A DNA stretch of 9,320 bases, from the IMG/VR virus record IMGVR_UViG_2651869781_000010; one strand, given 5' to 3'. The notes under the pieces were generated by a model. That model was given only the letters and a program-made list of their open reading frames with translations, searched no databases and was not told the DNA's origin. Source of the stretch: a virus (Duplodnaviria > Heunggongvirae > Uroviricota > Caudoviricetes). Positions 1 through 9,320 of this stretch are shown here, piece by piece; within the stretch, counting starts at the first letter, position 1; every line of letters starts with the position of its first letter. Position numbers and translations under genes: made by a program.

Positions 1-774
1 TATGTCAAAATTATCAAAATCGAAAGAATTGATTTTCTCATTAAATTCATCAAATTCCGCTTGTTTGATGCTTAATAAATCAGTTAACACCTCTTCTTCA
101 TCACCAACAAAGTTACCTACCTTTTCAATTAACTCTGATAACTTTTGTTTGTTTTTTTCTATTTCGTCACTAAGCTCATAATTACGAATTAAATTAGCAC
201 TATCAAACCCAAGCAGGTGACCTATGTATGGTTTCCAAAAAATGTGTTTTCCAATAAAATCTTTTAATCTAAATACATCAGTATAATCATCTTGCCCACG
301 CAGTGAATAGCCTAAGGCAGTCCGATAATCCCAACGCTTAATTACACTTAAATCAAAAAGTGCATCCAAACACTCTTTCGACCTCTCAAAGGGTAGCTCT
401 GGATAGTCCCATTCACTAACTGCTAAATCAGTAAAGTCTTGATGCTTCTGCTCATGTTTTATAATACTTATTTTTGTAGGTGAGGCAACTGAGCGACGAA
501 TCGTTACATAACCCCCTGAGTTAAGAGCCACTTCTAGATAAAAAACAAAACTCTCAAAAACATTAAAATTTTTAAATAAAAAATGATTTTTATTTTTTTT
601 CTTAAGTAAACAAAAATCTATTAGATCACATAATTTACTTTTCCCTAAATTATGCGTATCTTTGCCTCTATTCTCAGAACGTCTTATTTCACCGATAACT
701 ACATTAAGCCCATCATGAAACTTTATAGGACTAAAAACATCTTTTTTATTAGAGTAAATTTTTGATAGTTTCAT
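1..774 (-). CDS. ABC/SMC-type ATPase, N-terminal 258 codons only (gene continues past window start); candidate ATPase subunit of a Lamassu/ABC-3C-like system
   Basis: Hand translation of the minus strand from ATG at 774..772 gives MKLSKIYSNKKDVFSPIKFHDGLNVVIGEIRRSENRGKDTHNLGKSKLCDLIDFCLL..., which resembles the N-terminus of OLD/ABC-family ATPases (LNVxIGE ... GKS ... LIDF). The frame stays open to position 1. The ATG overlaps the TGA of the upstream 79-aa ORF (ATGA). The P-loop is non-canonical, with about 11 extra residues between GE and GKS. This ORF is absent from the supplied track because it is truncated. Confidence 0.55.
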   Translation of the reverse strand, partial: MKLSKIYSNKKDVFSPIKFHDGLNVVIGEIRRSENRGKDTHNLGKSKLCDLIDFCLLKKKNKNHFLFKNFNVFESFVFYLEVALNSGGYVTIRRSVASPTKISIIKHEQKHQDFTDLAVSEWDYPELPFERSKECLDALFDLSVIKRWDYRTALGYSLRGQDDYTDVFRLKDFIGKHIFWKPYIGHLLGFDSANLIRNYELSDEIEKNKQKLSELIEKVGNFVGDEEEVLTDLLSIKQAEFDEFNEKINSFDFDNFDI

Positions 775-1010
775 TTTTTAACCCACTCAATCAAATCATT
801 TTTAGAATGATATTCGATCAGACCTAATAAATATAACAAACCTAGTGCGGGGTTGAATAAGGAAATAGCTCGCTCATCATATTTCTCAAGTGCATCATAA
901 AGCTCAGCATATTTACCAAATTTAGCTTTGCGTAGCTTTTTCATTAAGAATGCAGCTACCGCCAAGACGGTCAAATCTGGATGTGAATTCTTATTAGGAA
1001 GCAAGCTCAC
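771..1010 (-). CDS. small (79 aa) helical protein, candidate middle component (LmuC/ABC-3C MC-like) of the three-gene system
   Basis: ORF from the track with GTG start at 1010..1008, preceded by AGGAG (complement of 1016-1020) at about 6 nt. It overlaps the upstream gene by 17 nt and the downstream ATPase by 4 nt (ATGA), indicating translational coupling. No recognisable catalytic motif. The functional label rests on size and position only. Confidence 0.55.
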   Translation of the reverse strand: MSLLPNKNSHPDLTVLAVAAFLMKKLRKAKFGKYAELYDALEKYDERAISLFNPALGLLYLLGLIEYHSKNDLIEWVKK

Positions 1011-1941
1011 AGCTATCTCCTATATCACAATTATAATACATATAGTAAACCATTATTCTTGTTAATTTTTTATTTTTGTGCAGATCTGAATCCCTTGCAA
1101 TCAGTAGTTCAATCATCACCTCGAGAATTCGATCAAAATCATGATAATCCTTTTTATAAACACATATTTTAGCTGCAAGCTCATCTGCGCTTTCAATATA
1201 TTTTTTTTGATATGCGCTATTATCAGGATGAGATAAAAAATCCGAAATTTCAGTAATCTCAGCGATTTTTTTCTTAATAAGCTCAGCGTAACTGTTGCTT
1301 AAGTTATTTATTTTATTTTTCTGTAGAAAATCCACTCTAAAAATATGTGATGAAATAGTCTTATCTGTTAATTTACCAAGAGATGTATTTATACCTATAA
1401 TAACTTCTGCCAGTTGTTCTGGATCGATATTAATAAGCACATCGAATGGGTTAAGACCGGCCATTTCAGGCACATGTGGAAATACCTTAAAGTACCTCTC
1501 CATAGTTTCTATCCCAATCAACCCTATGTTGAATTTATCTAACCCGGTTTGGGTACTTATAAAATCCAGAATGTTTTTATTTGCCTCAGCAGGTAGTCGT
1601 CTATTGGCAAACAACAAATAATTATTAATTTTATCTTCATCAATTAATTTTTGTATTTTTGGTAATTCTACATTCAAAACTGAGGTTGTATTACCAAAGA
1701 AATCAGCATCAGAAAATTTTCTGTTATGATTTATAGTATGCTTAGCCTGTATTATGGTTAAACCATCCCATGGCCTGGCTTTACTAGGGTATGCTTCAGC
1801 TACACCATCGAATCTTGAGTCACGTCCCCCATCCCGCCCATCAGCAAAGGATTGAGTTCCTATGCCTAAAAGATCATAGCAAAGGTAAACAACTAGGGTT
1901 TCAAATTGAAATGCCGATAAACTGCAGTAGTCATATTTCAT
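994..1941 (-). CDS. 315-aa protein with N-terminal Mrr-like PD-(D/E)xK nuclease motif plus a C-terminal helical domain of about 200 aa; candidate effector (LmuA-like)
   Basis: ATG at 1941..1939. The N-terminal segment ...SFADGRDGGRDSRFDG...(about 20 aa)...LTIIQAKH carries a DGGxD ... QxK pattern typical of the Mrr catalytic/restriction-endonuclease fold. It is the first gene of three overlapping genes. AT-rich codon usage matches the two downstream genes. Confidence 0.65.
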   Translation of the reverse strand: MKYDYCSLSAFQFETLVVYLCYDLLGIGTQSFADGRDGGRDSRFDGVAEAYPSKARPWDGLTIIQAKHTINHNRKFSDADFFGNTTSVLNVELPKIQKLIDEDKINNYLLFANRRLPAEANKNILDFISTQTGLDKFNIGLIGIETMERYFKVFPHVPEMAGLNPFDVLINIDPEQLAEVIIGINTSLGKLTDKTISSHIFRVDFLQKNKINNLSNSYAELIKKKIAEITEISDFLSHPDNSAYQKKYIESADELAAKICVYKKDYHDFDRILEVMIELLIARDSDLHKNKKLTRIMVYYMYYNCDIGDSCELAS

Positions 1942-1992: not shown

Positions 1993-2022
1993 ATCATATA
2001 ATTGCCACTGAAATAATTTCAA
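1993..2022 (-). promoter_or_regulatory. candidate sigma70 promoter for the cargo operon
   Basis: On the minus strand: TTGAAA (2022..2017), a 16-18 nt spacer, then TATATG/TATGAT (2000..1993), about 55 nt upstream of the ATG at 1941. Found by eye in AT-rich DNA, so a chance match is plausible. Confidence 0.3.
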
Positions 2023-2348: not shown

Positions 2349-2621
2349 TCAGACAGGAATCTGCTGACGGCTTGACAGTTTTGACGCGGAGCCATAGCGA
2401 TTGAGCGTTTGCTGTTGTTTTACCGGGGCTTGTGATTTGTCTGGTTCCTGTTCATTGCGCCGGGGTTTCATGATTATCTTATCCACACTCTCCAGTGCCG
2501 TAAATGTGCAGGAACATTCCAGATTCTGGCACTGATACCACGAGCGTTTAACTGACGGAGCTTCATAGGCTGCTGTTCTGGCGTGTGCAACTGTACCGCA
2601 TTCCGGACATTTAAGTGCCAT
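2349..2621 (-). CDS. ogr: Ogr/Delta-family zinc-finger late-gene transcriptional activator (90 aa from the ATG)
   Basis: MALKCPECGTVAHARTAAYEAPSVKRSWYQCQNLECSCTFTALESV... carries the exact C-x2-C-x22-C-x4-C spacing and the AHxRT / YxQCxN / TFxxxESV motifs of P2 Ogr and P4 Delta. The track ORF begins at a GTG at 2630; the ATG at 2621..2619 with AGGAG 8 nt upstream is preferred. Single-domain, not duplicated as in P4 Delta. Confidence 0.85.
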   Translation of the reverse strand: MALKCPECGTVAHARTAAYEAPSVKRSWYQCQNLECSCTFTALESVDKIIMKPRRNEQEPDKSQAPVKQQQTLNRYGSASKLSSRQQIPV

Positions 2622-2626
2622 TAATA

Positions 2627-3178
2627 TCACTCCTGTATATCGTTAATGTCATTCAGGCGTTGCTGAAAACGCAGATGTTGTGCCGGGGTGTAAGAGCCCT
2701 GGCAATCACGAATCATCCCGGGGTCTGGCATCAAACCGGATTCATCCAGGATCTCACGATAATCCCCGGCAATTTCAGGCGGTGTTATTGCCAGCTGGCG
2801 AACCAGAGCACTGCGTAATATACGGGACGCAACGTCAACCCCTCCGCGCCCCTTCAGGAACGGAGCCAGTGCAGATGTCAGGGCTGCCCCATTCGCCTGC
2901 ATAAAATTGCTGAGAGCAGCTTCTGTGCAGGCCTCCATCAATAAATGCTGCGAGTAAATGCATTCGCGAGCAGCACAGTTAATTTGCCATTTCAGCACAT
3001 CCAGACGTTCCCGCAGTAATTCGAGCTGTCGGGCATAATCTGTTGGTTTTTCTGTGGCAGCGAGGAGAGATGCTATCTGTTGTTCAACGGCTTTTCGGGT
3101 CTCACTATGTCCGGCCCACAGAATACGGGCATTCCGAAAACTGGTAAGTGCCTGGTCAGGTGTGCCTCGGGCCGTCAT
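2627..3178 (-). CDS. psu: Psu-like protein (polarity suppression / capsid decoration), 183 aa
   Basis: All-helical 183-aa protein. Segments KWQINCAARECI, FMQANGAALTSALAPFL and YTPAQHLRF resemble P4 Psu as I remember it (KWQVNQAAGRYI, FMQQHGTALAAALAPEL, FTPAQNMIF). Length is close to P4 Psu (190 aa). The ATG overlaps the stop of the upstream gene (ATGA). The comparison is from memory, not from an alignment. Confidence 0.55.
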   Translation of the reverse strand: MTARGTPDQALTSFRNARILWAGHSETRKAVEQQIASLLAATEKPTDYARQLELLRERLDVLKWQINCAARECIYSQHLLMEACTEAALSNFMQANGAALTSALAPFLKGRGGVDVASRILRSALVRQLAITPPEIAGDYREILDESGLMPDPGMIRDCQGSYTPAQHLRFQQRLNDINDIQE

Positions 3179-3918
3179 ACAGCTTTCTCCTTCTCAGCAA
3201 GTTCCTGACGAACCTTTATTTTATGCATAGCTGCCGGAGAGAGTTGATTACTGAAATCCAGACGCGCCGCATAATCCGGGGCAACTCCCGCCAGTTTAAA
3301 CACCGGGTCCTGTTCAGGCATCGCATCGTTAGCCAGAGCCGGTCTGGTGATATGTTTATGAATAAAGTCTTTCAGCACTGTGTCCGGGTCATTAACTGAA
3401 TTCACCACACCCACAACGGCACTGGCTTCCCGGCCCATTGTGGATTTAAGCAGGCTCAGCGTCTGAATAAGCGCTTTTCCATGCGACTGCATAAAATCTT
3501 CCCAGATTTGTTTTGCGCGAATATCCACAAGAATGTTATGCGCGTGGATATACTTTCCGGCTAATTCCGCAGCTTTCTGCGGCAAAAGTGCATTTTCGCT
3601 TTCCTGAGCCGCCAGCAGCTCATCAAAATCCTCAAGCGTTTCTCGTCCCAGCGCAATTTCCGTGCGCAGTTTTTTCATTTCCTTTGAGACCACGCCCTGA
3701 CTTTCACGAAACAGCGTGCGCCACTCCTCATTCAGTGTGTTCGTCGTGGCTTCCATTTCAGCGCGACGCTGGCGGATTGTCGCAATATTATCCGCTGCAG
3801 CTTTCTGCTGACGACGTGCTTCAAGCCATGCGTTTCTGGCTGTGTTCATGGTTTCCAGTGCCCGCTGCGTTACAGCCGGAAAAGTGGAAAGGTTGTTATT
3901 CACTGCGGTGTTGTTCAT
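3175..3918 (-). CDS. 247-aa coiled-coil protein, putative Sid-like capsid size-determination scaffold (assigned by size and position only)
   Basis: ATG at 3918..3916 with AGGAG 6 nt upstream. Helical, charged, Ala/Glu/Arg-rich sequence. It is the first gene of the late operon directly behind the Ogr-type promoter, and P4 Sid is 244 aa. No sequence motif was recognised. Confidence 0.4.
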   Translation of the reverse strand: MNNTAVNNNLSTFPAVTQRALETMNTARNAWLEARRQQKAAADNIATIRQRRAEMEATTNTLNEEWRTLFRESQGVVSKEMKKLRTEIALGRETLEDFDELLAAQESENALLPQKAAELAGKYIHAHNILVDIRAKQIWEDFMQSHGKALIQTLSLLKSTMGREASAVVGVVNSVNDPDTVLKDFIHKHITRPALANDAMPEQDPVFKLAGVAPDYAARLDFSNQLSPAAMHKIKVRQELAEKEKAV

Positions 3919-3952
3919 GACTTCTCCTGTCGGGTTGGTTCGTTACGTCAAT

Positions 3953-4008
3953 TGTGTCGTGGCTGACACAAGCACACTATCGGTGCTCAGTGTGTGGTGG
4001 CTGGCACA
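3953..4008 (-). promoter_or_regulatory. late promoter with two Ogr/Delta-type TGT-N12-ACA dyads (Psid-like)
   Basis: TGTGTCGTGGCTGACACA (3953-3970) and TGTGTGGTGGCTGGCACA (3991-4008) are near-identical, with centres 38 bp apart, and lie 35-90 bp upstream of the ATG at 3918. P2/P4 late promoters use a TGT-N12-ACA activator site centred near -55, and P4 late promoters have a second promoter-proximal site. Confidence 0.6.
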
Positions 4009-4096
4009 ACGGACGCTTGCGGTTATTCAGACGTGGCTATGAAAGCCAGCCAGATAAAAATACCCTCTGTTTCAGTCTGCTTTATGTCCCTGATGC

Positions 4097-4292
4097 GGTG
4101 GAACAGGTGAAACATGTGTTACTGCTTTGTTTTATAAAGCATTTATATACACTGCACCGGTGGAACATCGCGGGTAACAAGGTGGAACAGCGGATTGGCT
4201 GGCGTTACATCTGTTCCACCTCACTATTTCAGAAGGTGGAACAGGTTCAGCCCTGTAAAATACGGTTGTTCCACCTGTTTCACCTGTTACCC
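4097..4292. repeat. iteron cluster, candidate ori/crr-like replication element bound by the primase
   Basis: GGTGGAACA at 4097-4105, 4159-4167, 4181-4189 and 4235-4243. Variant GGTGAAACA at 4106-4114. Inverse copies TGTTCCACC at 4212-4220 and 4267-4275, and TGTTTCACC at 4276-4284. Close to the P4 alpha-binding octamer TGTTCACC. Located in the 400-bp non-coding gap immediately 3' of the primase gene. Confidence 0.7.
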
Positions 4293-4318
4293 TTAATAAA
4301 TAAGACTCACGCAAAGCC

Positions 4319-6991
4319 TTAACCCGGCACCTCGCTGTTGAAGACATAGAGCCTGCGGGGATTCATCTCTGGCGGGCGAATGGTTGTCTGGAGTTTGCCA
4401 TCAGTGGAGGGCAGCAGGTATCCACGATCTACGCACAGACGCGCCACCTTGCGCGGGTCAAATCCCCTGCAGATTTCTTTCCAGCCGGACGGCATGACAT
4501 AGAACGTAGTGACAGCTTCCGTGCCCTGCGCGGTACTGCCTTTCTCCACCCTGCGCCAGCCCACCATATTGCCGGGGCGGTTGCGCTCGTCATACCAGTC
4601 TGCAAAGCGGCTGTACTGATTCGCGGTAAAGAAACTGCGAACCTGCTCCAGTGCGGCGATATCTTCCTGATTGGCGGTGTGCCCGCGATCTTTCAGCCAT
4701 GCGTTCAGGCAGACGCGGGTTGCCCGCAGTGCTTCACCCTCAGGCCAGCCGGTGATACCCAGACGGGTTGCCAGTTCACCTGCCATCGCCACCAGTGCAA
4801 AGCGGTTCACAGCCCGGCCCACCTGATTGCCTGCATCTTTAGGAGTCAGGGCGGCAGCATATTCCTTCATCAGCGATTTTGCCTGTGCCGTTAGTCCGTT
4901 AAGATCAGCGGTCAGTGCTTTCAGCCACTCCCGGAACGGCGAACCGTAGTAGCAGGACGTGGCCCATTCAAGATGCTCTGCCAGAGCCTTGCCGCTGTCG
5001 AAGCCGTGCAGCTCCTCAAAAACGCCAAACTTCCCGGAATCGCTTGGGATCTGGATCATCCTGACTTCCATCCCGGCAAAAGTACGCTCACCGGCCTTTG
5101 CCGCATGTTCGGTCAGAGACAACTCGCCAGTTGAAAAGAACAACAGGCGCCACTGCTTACGGGTACGCAGCTCACCGTCCGTACCGGCACGGCCCTTGCC
5201 CTGACCGTTTGCCAGCATGTAGGCGATATTGCCTGCCTCGCGTCCGTCAACTTCCCGGATCTCATCAAGCATCATGGCGGCATCGTTGCGGCGGCTGGCG
5301 CATCCCTCCAGCGCGTTGCCGGTGGCCCGCCATGTCTGCCAGTAGTCAGGCCCGCCGCAGACGGAGGTTGCCGCTTTCATGGTGGTGGTCTTACCGTCTG
5401 TCGATTCCCCTTTTAGGTGGTAGCCGCCGCCGTCCATACCAACCAGCCGTAACAGTGGTGCAGCAAAGGCCAGGCTGACAGCAAATGCCACGCGGGAGTT
5501 GCCGGTACAGTAGCGGGATACATGCTCCCGCCATTCCTCTGTTGTGCCCGACACGCGGAAATCACGCCCCTGCACGGAAGTGGTCTGGAGAATGACACCC
5601 TCTGCACCTTCACCGCTGACCTCATCCTGCAGGACGTAAACCTGACCATGCCAGCCAGTACGACTGACGCAGGTCACGCGGCGTTCCGGTTTACACAGTG
5701 AGATATATTCCATCAGGCGTGCGCGTGCCTCACCGGTGGTGCTGATATAAGACAGCCCGTTAACCAGCAGTACCCGGCGCAGTTCCTCACCACTGCCGCT
5801 CAGCATTTCCATCGGCATCGCCCAGCGGCGACACTCACCCCACGTATCTTCCCATTCCAGCAGTCGTCCGAAGTTACCGCCATCGGCATCGCAGGTGATT
5901 GCCGTCACGCGCAGCGGGCTGCATATTTTGACGTTCTGGATCTCCGTCTCACCGTTGCGCTGTACCTGCTTTTCATACCAGAGATATTCCTGGGTAAGAC
6001 GGAACCCGTGCGGCAGTTGCGTGCGGCCTTCCCCGCACAGTACCAGACCGTTGCGAAAGGCTTCACGGGCACGGGTAATACCGTGCTCCCGATGAAAGTC
6101 ATTCCAGTCAGCCTTAATCTCTCCTGGTGGCAGGGTCATCCAGCCGCCAACAGCTTTTGCCGCCCGTTCAGCAAAGGCTCTGCCGGGATTCTCACCCCCG
6201 TCCTGAAAATCGTTATCACCGGCGATGATAATTTTTACCTCAGGCCAGCGTGCCCGCAGCGACTGCGCCACATTGGGCAGGTTGCCCGCAGATATGGCAG
6301 CCACTACGCATCCGGCAGTGAGCTGGCTTACCGTCAGCGCCGTAGCGTAACCTTCGGTAATCACCACCTGTACCGGTGGTTCAGACGGTAACGGGCTGAG
6401 CGACACAAACGCGCCTTTCATCGTGCTGCCGGGCAGTATGCTTTTTTCACCCGTCGGGGCGATAAGCTGTGCACCGGTCACGGCTCCGGTGTTGGTCGTG
6501 AGTGGTAACAGCAGGGAACCGGTAGGAAAATCCTTACCGCTGATATGCTGCACGCTTCCGGTCAGAGAGGCCGGGTATCCGGCGAACCCTTTTCCTGTCA
6601 GATAGGCGCTTTCTCCCGTGTGGCTCTCTTTCATCAGCGCCGCCACGGTAAGACCCATGTCGCGTTTAGGGGCTTTTTGTCTGGCAGGCTTAACAGGCAG
6701 TTCCTGCACATCCGGCACATTAAGCACCTGCGCCACCTCCTGCGCAGCCTTTCTGACGCTGTAACCGGTTACGAGCTTAACCAGATCCAGACCGTCACCA
6801 TTGCCACACTGGCTGCAGATCCACGTCCCGCGCCCGTCAAGGTCATCAAGGCGAAAACGATCCTTGCCCCCACATTTCGGGCAGGGACCGTGCCTGCCGT
6901 TTTCAGGTACATCAATACGCAGCATCTGCAGAATAACGGGCCATTTCCCCCGTGCGGCGGCTGAAATCTGCGTAACCGTCTGTATTGTCAT
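4319..6991 (-). CDS. P4 alpha-like primase/helicase (N-terminal zinc ribbon, TOPRIM primase domain, SF3/D5-type P-loop NTPase), 890 aa
   Basis: CPKCGG...CSQCG zinc ribbon near the N-terminus. VVITEGYATALT and IIAGDNDFQDGGENPG are TOPRIM acidic motifs. Walker A GESTDGKTT lies mid-protein. The ATG at 6991 overlaps the upstream stop (ATGA) and has a GAGGGGG Shine-Dalgarno sequence. The iterons lie just downstream. Confidence 0.9.
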   Translation of the reverse strand: MTIQTVTQISAAARGKWPVILQMLRIDVPENGRHGPCPKCGGKDRFRLDDLDGRGTWICSQCGNGDGLDLVKLVTGYSVRKAAQEVAQVLNVPDVQELPVKPARQKAPKRDMGLTVAALMKESHTGESAYLTGKGFAGYPASLTGSVQHISGKDFPTGSLLLPLTTNTGAVTGAQLIAPTGEKSILPGSTMKGAFVSLSPLPSEPPVQVVITEGYATALTVSQLTAGCVVAAISAGNLPNVAQSLRARWPEVKIIIAGDNDFQDGGENPGRAFAERAAKAVGGWMTLPPGEIKADWNDFHREHGITRAREAFRNGLVLCGEGRTQLPHGFRLTQEYLWYEKQVQRNGETEIQNVKICSPLRVTAITCDADGGNFGRLLEWEDTWGECRRWAMPMEMLSGSGEELRRVLLVNGLSYISTTGEARARLMEYISLCKPERRVTCVSRTGWHGQVYVLQDEVSGEGAEGVILQTTSVQGRDFRVSGTTEEWREHVSRYCTGNSRVAFAVSLAFAAPLLRLVGMDGGGYHLKGESTDGKTTTMKAATSVCGGPDYWQTWRATGNALEGCASRRNDAAMMLDEIREVDGREAGNIAYMLANGQGKGRAGTDGELRTRKQWRLLFFSTGELSLTEHAAKAGERTFAGMEVRMIQIPSDSGKFGVFEELHGFDSGKALAEHLEWATSCYYGSPFREWLKALTADLNGLTAQAKSLMKEYAAALTPKDAGNQVGRAVNRFALVAMAGELATRLGITGWPEGEALRATRVCLNAWLKDRGHTANQEDIAALEQVRSFFTANQYSRFADWYDERNRPGNMVGWRRVEKGSTAQGTEAVTTFYVMPSGWKEICRGFDPRKVARLCVDRGYLLPSTDGKLQTTIRPPEMNPRRLYVFNSEVPG

Positions 6992-7371
6992 ACTTCCCCC
7001 TCATACAACGTCACACCGGTACTGCAGAAGTCATCAAAGGCCGCCGGAAGCGTGCGGTACATCTCCGCCATCACTTCACAGCCGCGCGCGGTCAGTACCG
7101 GCGGCGCGGTCAGCAGTGATGGCTCCAGCATGTCAGTCAGCAGTGCCAGCGCGGCAGCGGCGCCCTGCACTTCGCCGTACTCGTTAATCAGTACGCACTC
7201 GATATGCAGCGCAATGGCCATTTCAATACGCTCCACCGTCAGGCTGTGCGGACCATACTGATCACTGCCAGTTTCGTTCAGCATTTTCTGCCGCCATGCT
7301 GAAGCAATAGCCCGCCGGTAAAGCGCGGTGGTCATTTCTACCGGGAAAATGGAAACCTGCGGCTGGTTCAT
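6988..7371 (-). CDS. hypothetical protein (127 aa), primase-operon gene
   Basis: ORF with ATG at 7371..7369, AAGGAGG upstream, and 4-nt ATGA overlaps with both neighbours. GC-rich codon usage matches the primase. No motif recognised. Confidence 0.6.
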   Translation of the reverse strand: MNQPQVSIFPVEMTTALYRRAIASAWRQKMLNETGSDQYGPHSLTVERIEMAIALHIECVLINEYGEVQGAAAALALLTDMLEPSLLTAPPVLTARGCEVMAEMYRTLPAAFDDFCSTGVTLYEGEV

Positions 7372-7652
7372 CTGGCACCTCCTTCAATCAGTGCGCAGCT
7401 GTGTGCAATATCCGTCAAATCTGCCAGCAGGTACTCCATCAGCGCGGCGACACCATGCGCACAGCCAGCGTCCAGTGCTCCGGCCTGAGACGGGTATTCA
7501 GAAAAGAGAAGCTGGAGCATGTCGCAGGCATTTTTTGCGCGGGTCAGCTTTCCGAAACTGTCCTCTGACAACCCATAGGCAAAAGCACCGGTATTGTGTT
7601 TTTCAGGCAAAGTGTGGCCCTGAGCACCGTTGTGCCCGTTTGAAATATTCAT
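7368..7652 (-). CDS. hypothetical protein (94 aa), primase-operon gene (position and size reminiscent of P4 epsilon, unverified)
   Basis: ATG at 7652..7650 with GGAG 9 nt upstream. The stop overlaps the next ATG. No motif recognised. Confidence 0.55.
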   Translation of the reverse strand: MNISNGHNGAQGHTLPEKHNTGAFAYGLSEDSFGKLTRAKNACDMLQLLFSEYPSQAGALDAGCAHGVAALMEYLLADLTDIAHSCALIEGGAR

Positions 7653-7683
7653 CGTGGATTACTCCGTTTTCAGCGGTATTTTG

Positions 7684-8043
7684 TCAGAGAAACTTTGAAT
7701 AGTGACCGTCGTCAGGCTCAGCAGAACGCCATATGCTACGCTCCCGCCAGCGGATAAATAGCACAGACGGATGCAGTGTCAGCGGGCCGGAACCACTACC
7801 GCCTGCAGGAGCTGGTGCAGGCTTAAAGAGCGGTACATCAAACAGGCGCGTATACCGCTGTTCAAACCATGCCAGAGGGCAGGAAGAAAGCTGGTTGTCG
7901 CTGTCATGACGTATCAGCACTTCACAGCTGAATTCAGGATTAACCAGCGCCACAGAGGGCGAGGCTTTAATTAATCGGATAATCGTGACCGTCCAGCCAC
8001 GTTCATGCTGCCAGCGTTCGCCGGGTTGCGGATAATTACGCAT
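7684..8043 (-). CDS. hypothetical protein (119 aa from the ATG), primase-operon gene
   Basis: The track ORF starts at a TTG at 8073. The ATG at 8043..8041 (MRNYPQPGERW...) with GGAGG 5-6 nt upstream is preferred. Contains a Pro/Gly-rich linker (KPAPAPAGGSGSGP). Confidence 0.55.
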   Translation of the reverse strand: MRNYPQPGERWQHERGWTVTIIRLIKASPSVALVNPEFSCEVLIRHDSDNQLSSCPLAWFEQRYTRLFDVPLFKPAPAPAGGSGSGPLTLHPSVLFIRWRERSIWRSAEPDDGHYSKFL

Positions 8044-8212
8044 GTTCACCTCCGCAGGGAATGCGCCCGGCAAAGCTCAGTACATAGTCCGGGGCAAGTC
8101 TGCGCCGCGCTGATCGCTCGTTATCTGCGGTGATCCTTAACATCACCGGACGGGCATTACGTTGACTGCGGTTGATCGCCGCAAATAACCAGGTACACTT
8201 CTCTTTAGCCAT
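8036..8212 (-). CDS. small hypothetical protein (58 aa), first ORF of the primase operon
   Basis: ATG at 8212..8210 with GAGG 9 nt upstream. Translates as MAKEKCTWLFAAINRSQRNARPVMLRITADNERSARRRLAPDYVLSFAGRIPCGGEHA. Its TAA (8038..8036) overlaps the ATG of the next gene by 8 nt. It is the 3' part of the 244-aa track ORF 8036..8770, whose upstream portion looks spurious. Confidence 0.35.
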   Translation of the reverse strand: MAKEKCTWLFAAINRSQRNARPVMLRITADNERSARRRLAPDYVLSFAGRIPCGGEHA

Positions 8213-8287
8213 CTTCGTTGCCTCATATAGCGGTTTGGTCAGAAGCCCGGTTAGTGTTGCTGCACTGTCGGGCTTCGCACTCACAAG

Positions 8288-8380
8288 GTGAATCGCACCT
8301 TCACTTTTAAAGCTACCCTTAAGTGAATCGCACTTCAAGTCTTTTATTATCATTTTTTTTGCGTATACTGAATCGCACCT
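8288..8380. promoter_or_regulatory. divergent control region: three direct repeats (candidate operators) plus the -10 element of the plus-strand regulator gene
   Basis: GTGAATCGCACCT (8288-8300), GTGAATCGCACTT (8323-8335) and CTGAATCGCACCT (8368-8380). The third overlaps a TATACT -10 (8364-8369) located 30 nt upstream of the ATG at 8400, which has AAGGAG at 8386-8391. The region separates the primase operon (minus) from the RHH-like gene (plus). Confidence 0.5.
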
Positions 8381-8399
8381 AACGCAAGGAGATCCAGTA

Positions 8400-8585
8400 A
8401 TGGCAACGGGTTCAACTAACAACAAGTCGCAGCAACTTAATGCTCGTTTCCCACATGATGTAGTTGCAGAATTAGAAAGCAACCTTGAAGATGGGGAAAC
8501 GAAAGCGCAATTTATTGTTACCGCTGTAAAAGGCGAGATTAAACGCCGACAGCGCAGGAAAAATAAGCTAGAGCAAGTAAGCTGA
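8400..8585 (+). CDS. small DNA-binding regulator, probably ribbon-helix-helix type (61 aa)
   Basis: ATG at 8400 with AAGGAG 8 nt upstream. The segment QLNARFPHDVVAELESNLEDGETKAQFIVTAVKGEI has a strand-helix-helix pattern typical of Arc/CopG-like proteins, followed by a basic tail (KRRQRRKNK). A terminator follows. Confidence 0.55.
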   Translation: MATGSTNNKSQQLNARFPHDVVAELESNLEDGETKAQFIVTAVKGEIKRRQRRKNKLEQVS

Positions 8586-8648
8586 ATAGAGAAGCGAATA
8601 GACGTTCTCTCAGATTCCATGCTAATTTCAGTAAGCGACAATATTTTT

Positions 8649-8680
8649 AAGCCCACAAACTCATTTTGTCGGGCTTTTTT
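8649..8680 (+). terminator. Rho-independent terminator after the RHH-like gene
   Basis: Stem AAGCCCACA (8649-8657) / TGTcGGGCTT (8667-8676) with a one-base bulge and a 9-nt loop, followed by a T-run (8675-8680). It sits between the convergent RHH-like and AlpA-like genes. Confidence 0.5.
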
Positions 8681-8681
8681 A

Positions 8682-8912
8682 TTAGTGATTTTCATGCCGT
8701 TCACCACGAGAGGCATATATTTGCTCTTGAATCCAGTGATCGACTTCGCTTTCAACAAATGAAATTGCACGAGTTCCTATTTTCACCGGGCGGGGAAATG
8801 TATTGTTTGAAAGCTGTTTGTAAAGCCATGCCTTGCTACGCTGAACGCGTCTTAACACCTCTTTTGCTGAGATAAGGGTCTGATTCTCTGAAAGGTTGTT
8901 TGCATATTCCAT
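8682..8912 (-). CDS. alpA: AlpA/Vis-family phage transcriptional regulator / excisionase-like protein (76 aa from the ATG)
   Basis: ISAKEVLRRVQRSKAWLYKQLSNNTFPRPVKIGTRAISFVESEVDHWIQEQI matches the AlpA/Vis helix-turn-helix signature (...S.STIYR....G.FP.PIKLG.R...W...E...WI). The track ORF begins at a GTG at 8957. The ATG at 8912..8910 with GGAG 8 nt upstream is preferred. Confidence 0.8.
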   Translation of the reverse strand: MEYANNLSENQTLISAKEVLRRVQRSKAWLYKQLSNNTFPRPVKIGTRAISFVESEVDHWIQEQIYASRGERHENH

Positions 8913-9193
8913 CTTGTTACTCCGTGTTCTGCTTAAGTTCACGGTGACTTTAAACACTGAAAAAAAGTCATTCTAGTGATAATGGAATCTATTAAGACAA
9001 ACACTGATTCTATTGAAATGTGATGATTTCCACTGAAAAAAAAGAAACGATATTCATATGAAAGAACACAAGAAGAAGGAAATGCACAAATATAAAATCA
9101 ATAAAATTCATATAGATAGGATGAAAAATCAAAAAAATCATACGTCAAAAGGTATTATTACGTATTATCGATTCATATTACTCAGGAATTACC

Positions 9194-9248
9194 ACAGTAT
9201 TACACTGTATTACCCCCTATAGCCCCTTAGAGCCTCTTGTAGCCCCTT
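9194..9248. repeat. two sets of tandem decamer-scale direct repeats in the AT-rich region upstream of alpA
   Basis: ACAGTATTAC (9194-9203) directly followed by ACTGTATTAC (9204-9213). Then TAGCCCCTT (9220-9228), a degenerate copy AGAGCCTCTT (9229-9238) and TAGCCCCTT (9240-9248) with roughly 10-bp periodicity. Confidence 0.4.
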
Positions 9249-9320
9249 CTAATGAGAGATATACAGAAAGTAATTAATAAATTCACTCTCCGTATTTTAT
9301 AATGTCTTTACCCAACTTTA

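Follow-up and report, generated by a model that had tools for sequence, protein, structure and literature searches.

A 79-residue gene assigned to the LmuC-type middle components (MC8) in a Lamassu cassette of a P4-like satellite

We examined a 9,320-nt stretch of viral DNA (the window) from the IMG/VR record IMGVR_UViG_2651869781_000010 and studied a small minus-strand gene at positions 771..1010, which encodes 79 amino acids (aa) and lies between an effector gene and an ATPase gene. Its product is almost certainly the lmuC-type middle component (MC), of family MC8, of a short-form type II Lamassu system. Type II Lamassu is also named ABC-3C and comprises the effector LmuA, the middle component LmuC and the ATPase LmuB (Lamassu literature). 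The gene, its family and the type of system are already known from Pfam, RefSeq and the Lamassu literature. An earlier note on this DNA had taken the gene for the small subunit of a three-gene defence operon, and the effector and ATPase on its flanks, together with the conserved gene order, bear this out. The features of the locus are as follows.

1..774, minus strand: 5' part (258 of 595 codons) of an lmuB-type ABC ATPase gene, which runs off the window (from translation).
771..774, minus strand: ATGA stop/start overlap of the middle gene and the ATPase gene (TGA 773..771 on ATG 774..772).
771..1010, minus strand: lmuC-type middle component gene (Pfam MC8/MC6), GTG start, 79 aa, predicted winged-helix product.
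994..1010, minus strand: 17-nt overlap of the effector 3' end and the middle-gene start (effector TAA at 996..994).
1017..1021, minus strand: Shine-Dalgarno sequence AGGAG, 6 nt 5' of the middle-gene GTG, within the last codons of the effector coding sequence.
994..1941, minus strand: lmuA-type effector gene, 315 aa, with an N-terminal Mrr-like restriction-endonuclease domain and the C-terminal helical domain CTD12 (from Pfam, homologues and AlphaFold2).
1993..2022, minus strand: sigma-70-like promoter candidate for the three-gene operon (TTGAAA-18-TATGAT; consensus scan, weak evidence).

The open reading frame (ORF) runs for 79 codons from 1010 to 771, with GTG at 1010..1008 and TGA at 773..771, and this GTG is the earliest start codon of the frame following a stop. 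The Shine-Dalgarno spacing is optimal. The earlier note had described a GTG start with AGGAG inside the effector 3' end and overlaps on both sides; we located these signals on the minus strand at 1010..1008 and 1021..1017, and both overlaps (17 nt with the effector, ATGA with the ATPase) were present. Of the nine loci compared, eight have an overlap of 11-20 nt between the effector and middle genes, and eight have ATGA at the end of the middle gene. In marine homologues the equivalent site reads GGTGA instead of AGGAG and falls in the codons for the conserved C-D-I-G of the effector. The distant metagenomic loci L015 and L017 have overlaps of 4-7 nt upstream and 4 nt downstream of the middle gene. 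Since the overlaps on both sides are conserved, translational coupling of the three genes is plausible. It had also been claimed that such nested coupling enforces a fixed stoichiometry among subunits of one complex. The inference of one complex is reasonable, but the fixed ratio is overstated: the solved relatives have the composition A1:B2:C1, which is not equimolar, so coupling alone cannot set the ratio. The gene arrangement argues for co-expression and not for a fixed subunit ratio. The consensus promoter scan gave a total number of sites not above the shuffled expectation. No terminator was found between the three genes by the terminator scan, which fits one operon but is weak evidence.

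The conserved length, motif, synteny and Pfam family showed that the ORF is a genuine gene between the effector and the ATPase, as the earlier reading had it. Mononucleotide shuffles of the AT-rich region 1..1941 contained a mean of 0.23 ORFs of at least 79 aa, compared with the three observed. In a database search, 32 homologues were retrieved (48-97% identity), nearly all of 79 aa; the exceptions were three ORF calls that begin three codons earlier, one protein of 76 aa and one of 95 aa. The motif P5-N-K7-N8-x-x-P11-D12-L13-T14 was conserved in the 33 aligned sequences and invariant except at N6 (31/33). This motif precedes the sole internal ATG (codon 23), so the start is the GTG or a codon very near it. 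The codon aligned to the GTG is ATG in most homologues, and GTG is also used in Motiliproteus. Compared with the 95%-identical copy of Escherichia coli APEC E19025, the middle ORF carried five synonymous and one non-synonymous codon changes. Homologues down to 36% identity, from gamma- and alphaproteobacteria, kept the length, the N-terminal motif and the gene position, and mostly both overlaps. The exact 79-aa sequence occurred in 160 blocks of an assembly collection, in which the gene callers use the same start. An exhaustive profile search found 252 representative clusters in 1.84 billion, nearly all of 77-86 aa, and no fusion of the middle component to a partner was seen among the 150 clusters listed.

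The family assignment was made with Pfam. The 79-aa protein matched MC8 (PF20295) with E=1.7e-14 and 54.1 bits against a gathering cut-off of 25, and MC6 (PF20293) with E=1.9e-10 and 41.0 bits against a cut-off of 27.2. Both models were matched above cut-off by all 33 aligned members; MC8 spans residues 33-77 and MC6 residues 4-72, and they are overlapping models on one protein. The RefSeq entry WP_000055088.1, the APEC copy with one residue different, is named 'ABC-three component system middle component 8', and the flanking genes there are annotated as 'ABC-three component system protein' and 'DUF2326 domain-containing protein'. By its hidden Markov model match and its slot between a CTDn effector and an ABC ATPase, the window protein is a plain member of the MC8/MC6 families with no substantive difference; the families go back to an ABC-ATPase classification cited in the Lamassu papers. 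An NCBIfam hmmscan of all three cassette proteins gave no matches, although RefSeq uses the MC8 name, and PADLOC had no model matching the 79-aa protein. Sequence searches of the PDB, with single sequences and profiles of all three subunits, returned nothing meaningful.

We scored the gene order in loci L002-L013, L015 (where the upstream gene is cut by the contig end) and L017. The order effector-MC-ATPase was found in seven loci from Colwellia, Rahnella, two Vibrio species, Motiliproteus, an Alteromonadaceae metagenome-assembled genome and the alphaproteobacterium Maritimibacter, as well as in four exact-match loci, a P2-like prophage and the two distant metagenomic loci. The remaining window is a P4-like satellite with Ogr/Delta, Psu, a Sid-like protein, an alpha-type primase (Zn-ribbon/Toprim/DUF927), DUF5375 and AlpA; the related APEC locus continues with an integrase and tRNA-Leu. 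The G+C content was 31-36% in the Lamassu genes (window 1-1941) and 53% in the satellite backbone (2349-9320), with a sharp step between them. Such a step would fit cargo that was acquired recently from an AT-rich or marine gammaproteobacterial source, and the closest non-enterobacterial homologues of the cassette were from Vibrio, Colwellia and Photobacterium. Such satellites have a variable defence hotspot (PMC9122126; PMC11754643), and the AT-rich Lamassu cassette occupies this hotspot as cargo of a P4-like satellite prophage. The cassette was carried by 2 of 5426 complete E. coli genomes.

The neighbouring genes were compared in the same way. The effector matched CTD12 at residues 167-308 (Pfam, E=4.6e-51). 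Mrr_cat was matched by 25 of the 31 effector homologues (best E 7.2e-6), with the window's own effector below threshold. The invariant residues in the N-terminal half of the effector family were E14, D37, D41 and Q65-A66-K67, of which D37, D41 and Q65-x-K67 are of catalytic type. The AlphaFold2 (AF2) model of the effector has a mixed alpha/beta N-domain and a helical C-domain. With Foldseek, this model had only weak, non-significant counterparts in the PDB (a YydD-YydB integrative model, HerA-DUF4297, Cap4, Avs4 and some restriction enzymes). Given these weak matches, the nuclease assignment rests on the Mrr_cat matches of the homologues and on the invariant residues, and by sequence the effector is best described as an Mrr-type nuclease. 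The best, still weak, PDB match of the effector model was Bacillus subtilis YydD-YydB (9a6c_B, E=9e-3), a structural hint that the yyd genes may be a Lamassu-like module.

The partial ATPase of the window matched the PADLOC models PDC-M68B and LmuB. Its full-length counterpart, taken from the 99%-identical locus L009 (6237-8024), has 595 aa and the Pfam domain DUF2326, and matched PDC-M68B best (7.5e-47), followed by LmuB (1.7e-13). Invariant in the ATPase family were G44-K45 of Walker A and Y-H-D-G-G, a deviant Walker B which replaces the canonical D-E; LmuB proteins have a deviant Walker B (bioRxiv 10.1101/2025.06.23.660979). The middle third of the ATPase had only non-significant coiled-coil matches in the PDB (E at least 0.02). 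Short-form LmuB proteins are SMC/Rad50-like ABC ATPases with a coiled-coil insertion. The features of type II Lamassu were therefore found in both neighbours: the ATPase has the expected length of about 600 aa, Walker A and a deviant Walker B, and the effector joins an N-terminal effector domain to a helical domain of the CTD6-12 group. An ATPase of about 600 aa, a CTD of the 6-12 group and an MC of the 2-8 group together place the system in the diverged 'short' sub-family. As a separate observation, the N-terminal P-loop of the ATPase is H-N-L-G-K-S and lacks the first glycine of GxxxxGK[ST], which is also family-wide.

The AF2 model of the 79-aa protein, built from the 33-sequence alignment, had a predicted local distance difference test score (pLDDT) of 86.5, with helices at 11-29, 34-44 and 46-61 and strands at 31-33, 65-68 and 73-76. 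The succession H1-S1-H2-H3-S2-wing-S3 and strong structural matches were those of a winged helix, so that the protein is predicted with confidence to be a soluble winged helix. The strongest matches were protein-binding winged helices (cullin WHB and RPA32), and no LmuC chain ranked near the top. The predicted fold agrees with published work, in which modelled LmuC proteins of short Lamassu systems match helix-turn-helix (HTH) regulators (PMC12663957) and LmuC was labelled 'wHTH' in the Mrr-type systems tested by Millman et al. (bioRxiv 10.1101/2022.05.11.491447). The earlier description of the protein as hydrophobic and helical was partly right: the three helices are there, but so is a three-stranded sheet, and the grand average of hydropathy is -0.05 with an isoelectric point of 9.2. 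No coiled coil, for which that note had suggested a check, was predicted in the protein. The candidates for an invariant surface were the N-terminal PNKNxxPDLT and the wing segment Y67-H-x-K70-N-D72. The former had low pLDDT in the model of the lone protein and is possibly ordered on binding. Positions 24, 25, 27, 28 and 30 were conserved as basic. Helix 3, usually the DNA-reading helix, was largely hydrophobic and had Glu at 53 and 57 in most homologues, a pattern that argues for a protein-binding winged helix.

Several known Lamassu systems can be set beside the cassette. The type II systems of Vibrio cholerae and Salmonella enterica (LmuC/DdmB, MC3) are alike in operon order, in the helical CTD of the effector, in the LmuB of about 600 aa and in the HTH-like fold that is reported for LmuC models in general; LmuC is an essential core subunit there. 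They differ in that their effector is a Cap4 nuclease with CTD7, whereas that of the window is an Mrr with CTD12, and in that their LmuC is about twice as long as the MC8 protein (mutated residues are numbered to 149); no sequence similarity between MC3 LmuC and the 79-aa protein was detectable. Lamassu-Mrr of E. coli O150:H5 SE15 has three genes and an Mrr effector like the window, but combines MC2 with CTD6. The same combination occurs in the three-gene 'Lamassu-var' of E. coli TB182A (Domainator paper), which lies in a sid-psu-delta satellite. The MC2 proteins of SE15 and TB182A have 152-168 aa compared with 79 aa for MC8, and a profile comparison of MC8 with the SE15 LmuC showed no similarity. 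Type I Lamassu (Bacillus LmuA-LmuB) shares with the window the CTD12 of the effector and the short-form LmuB (bioRxiv 10.1101/2025.06.23.660979), but it has a Cap4 nuclease and no LmuC, whereas the window system has an Mrr nuclease and a minimal 79-aa MC.

In MC3-type complexes solved by cryo-electron microscopy, LmuC is central in LmuA1B2C1 and touches the C-terminal domain of LmuA, the kinked coiled coils of LmuB and double-stranded DNA (PMC12663957; bioRxiv 10.1101/2025.03.14.643221; 10.1101/2025.06.23.660979). Mutants of the interfaces and of the DNA contacts lost defence (PMC12663957; bioRxiv 10.1101/2025.03.14.643221). In the relatives, LmuC co-purifies with LmuB, and freed LmuA oligomerises into the active nuclease (published structures). 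The tested Lamassu-family systems, SE15 included, no longer gave defence once lmuC was deleted (bioRxiv 10.1101/2022.05.11.491447). A need for all three genes is thus established for MC2-type systems, and the interface mutants support it for MC3-type systems. The earlier note had proposed an adaptor as one possibility, and this is the best current description of the relatives, in which LmuC bridges the C-terminal domain of LmuA and the coiled coils of LmuB. By analogy, the MC8 protein would be co-translated with its partners and join an LmuA1B2C1 complex. There it would most likely link LmuA, through its helical C-terminal domain, to the folded coiled coils of the two LmuB subunits, and this bridging may help to keep the nuclease monomeric and inactive. 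It may also add contacts to the DNA backbone, for which the basic stretch 24-30 and the invariant wing residue K70 are candidates. On sensing phage DNA ends or replication intermediates, LmuB would hydrolyse ATP and LmuA would be released; the nuclease would then oligomerise and cut DNA indiscriminately, and the infection would be aborted.

We give a probability of roughly 0.8 to the explanation as a whole, namely that the protein is the MC8 component of a satellite-borne short type II Lamassu and acts as its MC3 and MC2 relatives do. For the transfer of the mechanism from these relatives to MC8, taken by itself, our confidence is only moderate, since no similarity of MC8 to MC2 or to a PDB chain could be detected. 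Other points also weigh against this explanation. The solved LmuC proteins are about twice as large as the MC8 protein, which likewise lowers our confidence in the transfer. CTD12 works without LmuC in type I Lamassu, so MC8 may contribute something other than MC3 does. The hydrophobic helix 3 with Glu at 53 and 57 makes DNA binding uncertain. The tested E. coli systems that were typed (SE15 and TB182A) both have MC2 and CTD6, and in the papers searched we found no experiment or structure for MC8/CTD12 and no mention of MC8 or PDC-M68.

We weighed several other explanations against this one. A chance open frame in the overlap region, never translated, would suit a short ORF with a non-ATG start. 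However, length and motifs are conserved across gamma- and alphaproteobacteria at 36-97% identity, the change from the APEC copy is mostly synonymous, and the ORF has a curated Pfam family, a Shine-Dalgarno sequence at optimal spacing and a confident fold prediction; the probability that it arose by chance is negligible. It had also been suggested that the product could even be membrane-associated. It does have two hydrophobic stretches (residues 13-23 and 54-65), and its best 19-residue Kyte-Doolittle window, at 1.61, lies at the classical membrane threshold of 1.6. Across the family, however, the median was 1.39 and only 7 of 33 members reached 1.6, and the 19-residue segment with 1.61 carries the polar, acidic or proline residues N/E53, P54 and E57 in most homologues. 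Stretches without charged or strongly polar residues did not exceed 12 aa in this protein or 14 aa in any family member; an integral membrane segment of about 18-20 such hydrophobic residues was thus absent by hydropathy. In addition, the N-terminus is the polar motif PNKNSHPD and not like a signal peptide, and the two hydrophobic stretches form helices 1 and 3 of the confident globular model. The membrane suggestion is accordingly unsupported by hydropathy and by the winged-helix model, and we regard insertion into or association with the membrane as highly improbable.

The remaining alternatives accept a soluble winged helix and differ in what it does. The protein might serve mainly as a DNA-recognition or specificity subunit and not chiefly as a structural bridge. 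The winged-helix fold, the isoelectric point, the conserved basic positions and the invariant K70-N71-D72 in the wing speak for this, as do the contacts of MC3-type LmuC with double-stranded DNA and the loss of defence in the contact mutants (PMC12663957; bioRxiv 10.1101/2025.03.14.643221). On the other hand, helix 3 is hydrophobic and in most homologues acidic, the top structural matches bind proteins, and the two roles do not exclude each other, since LmuC of the solved relatives has both; a predominantly DNA-reading subunit seems unlikely. A different possibility is that MC8 with CTD12 is an evolutionary and mechanistic intermediate between type II and type I, in which MC8 is dispensable or a regulatory add-on and not the keystone. 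In type I, CTD12 can bind LmuB without LmuC, so the complex might not depend structurally on the 79-aa winged helix; as an add-on, this could for example act as a brake and set how readily the system is activated, or it could redirect the sensor to certain DNA structures. We hold such an intermediate to be doubtful, with a rather low probability. Lastly, a small winged-helix protein could be a transcription factor that autoregulates the operon and not a stoichiometric subunit. This is hard to reconcile with a gene embedded between structural genes by conserved overlaps, and not placed upstream or divergently, and with membership in MC families, which are defined by this position. The AF2 model also has no dimerisation element outside the 79-aa domain, helix 3 is not basic, and LmuC of the relatives co-purifies with LmuB. 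We consider a regulator very unlikely.

The value of this gene as a discovery is small, given that gene, family and system type are catalogued and that the exact protein occurs in many assemblies. What interest remains lies in MC8/CTD12 as a minimal LmuC variant. The cassette pairs the smallest LmuC with a CTD12 that is used without LmuC in type I, and it would suit the study of what a minimal LmuC contributes. If MC8/CTD12 were indeed an intermediate, the loss of LmuC could be studied through MC8, which would then be the smallest LmuC known. For annotation, PADLOC 2.0 misses the MC8 protein and scores the ATPase best as the candidate PDC-M68B, so pipelines may label the cassette as 'candidate' or as an incomplete Lamassu.

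Further observations concern the satellite. The late genes on the minus strand at 2349-3918 encode a Sid-like protein (247 aa, weak Psu-family match), Psu (183 aa) and Delta (93 aa). The same late-gene layout is found in the E. coli TB182A satellite (L014) that bears the tested 'Lamassu-var' (MC2/CTD6), and this shared layout indicates that one backbone type hosts different Lamassu subtypes in its hotspot. Just downstream of delta/ogr, the inverted repeat AATCCCGGT-ACTTG-ACCGGGATT lies at 2306-2328, read on the minus strand, and is followed on that strand by a T-run. It looks like an intrinsic terminator of the satellite late operon, which would separate this operon from the Lamassu operon. 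The repeat has conserved stems and a variable loop in the APEC and L009 copies, and it was not among the sites given by the automatic terminator scan. An apparent divergence of 33% in the intergenic region 1942-2348, seen in an ungapped comparison, was an artefact of a 1-nt indel, and the aligned regions are about 95% identical. The minus-strand ORF of 244 aa at 8036-8770 is of low complexity, rich in Ser and Cys, and overlaps a plus-strand ORF of 61 aa at 8400-8585, the position of which is that of a YlcI/YnfO family gene in the APEC annotation; the 244-aa ORF is probably spurious. An Rfam scan of the window at gathering cut-offs gave no matches.

The P2-like prophage locus (L013) carries a homologous three-gene cassette at 5070-8024, in the prophage hotspot between the gpA replication gene and the portal gene. 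Its DNA is 76% identical to the window cassette, and the proteins are 81/80/78% identical for effector, MC and ATPase. The DNA homology begins at about window position 2021, at the -35 of the promoter-like site, and the mobile unit thus seems to carry a promoter of its own. A 2026 study reports that closely related defence genes are almost never common to P2 and P4 (PMC13586616). By their divergence, the two cassettes reflect old sharing or two independent acquisitions and no recent exchange. The assembly that holds this locus (GCA_901482455.1, CABEEN010000019.1; proteins P0003 and P0035) is labelled Campylobacter jejuni, and the flanks are P2-like prophage with 51-56% G+C. The G+C content of C. 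jejuni is roughly 30%; GCA_901482455.1 is probably mislabelled or contaminated.

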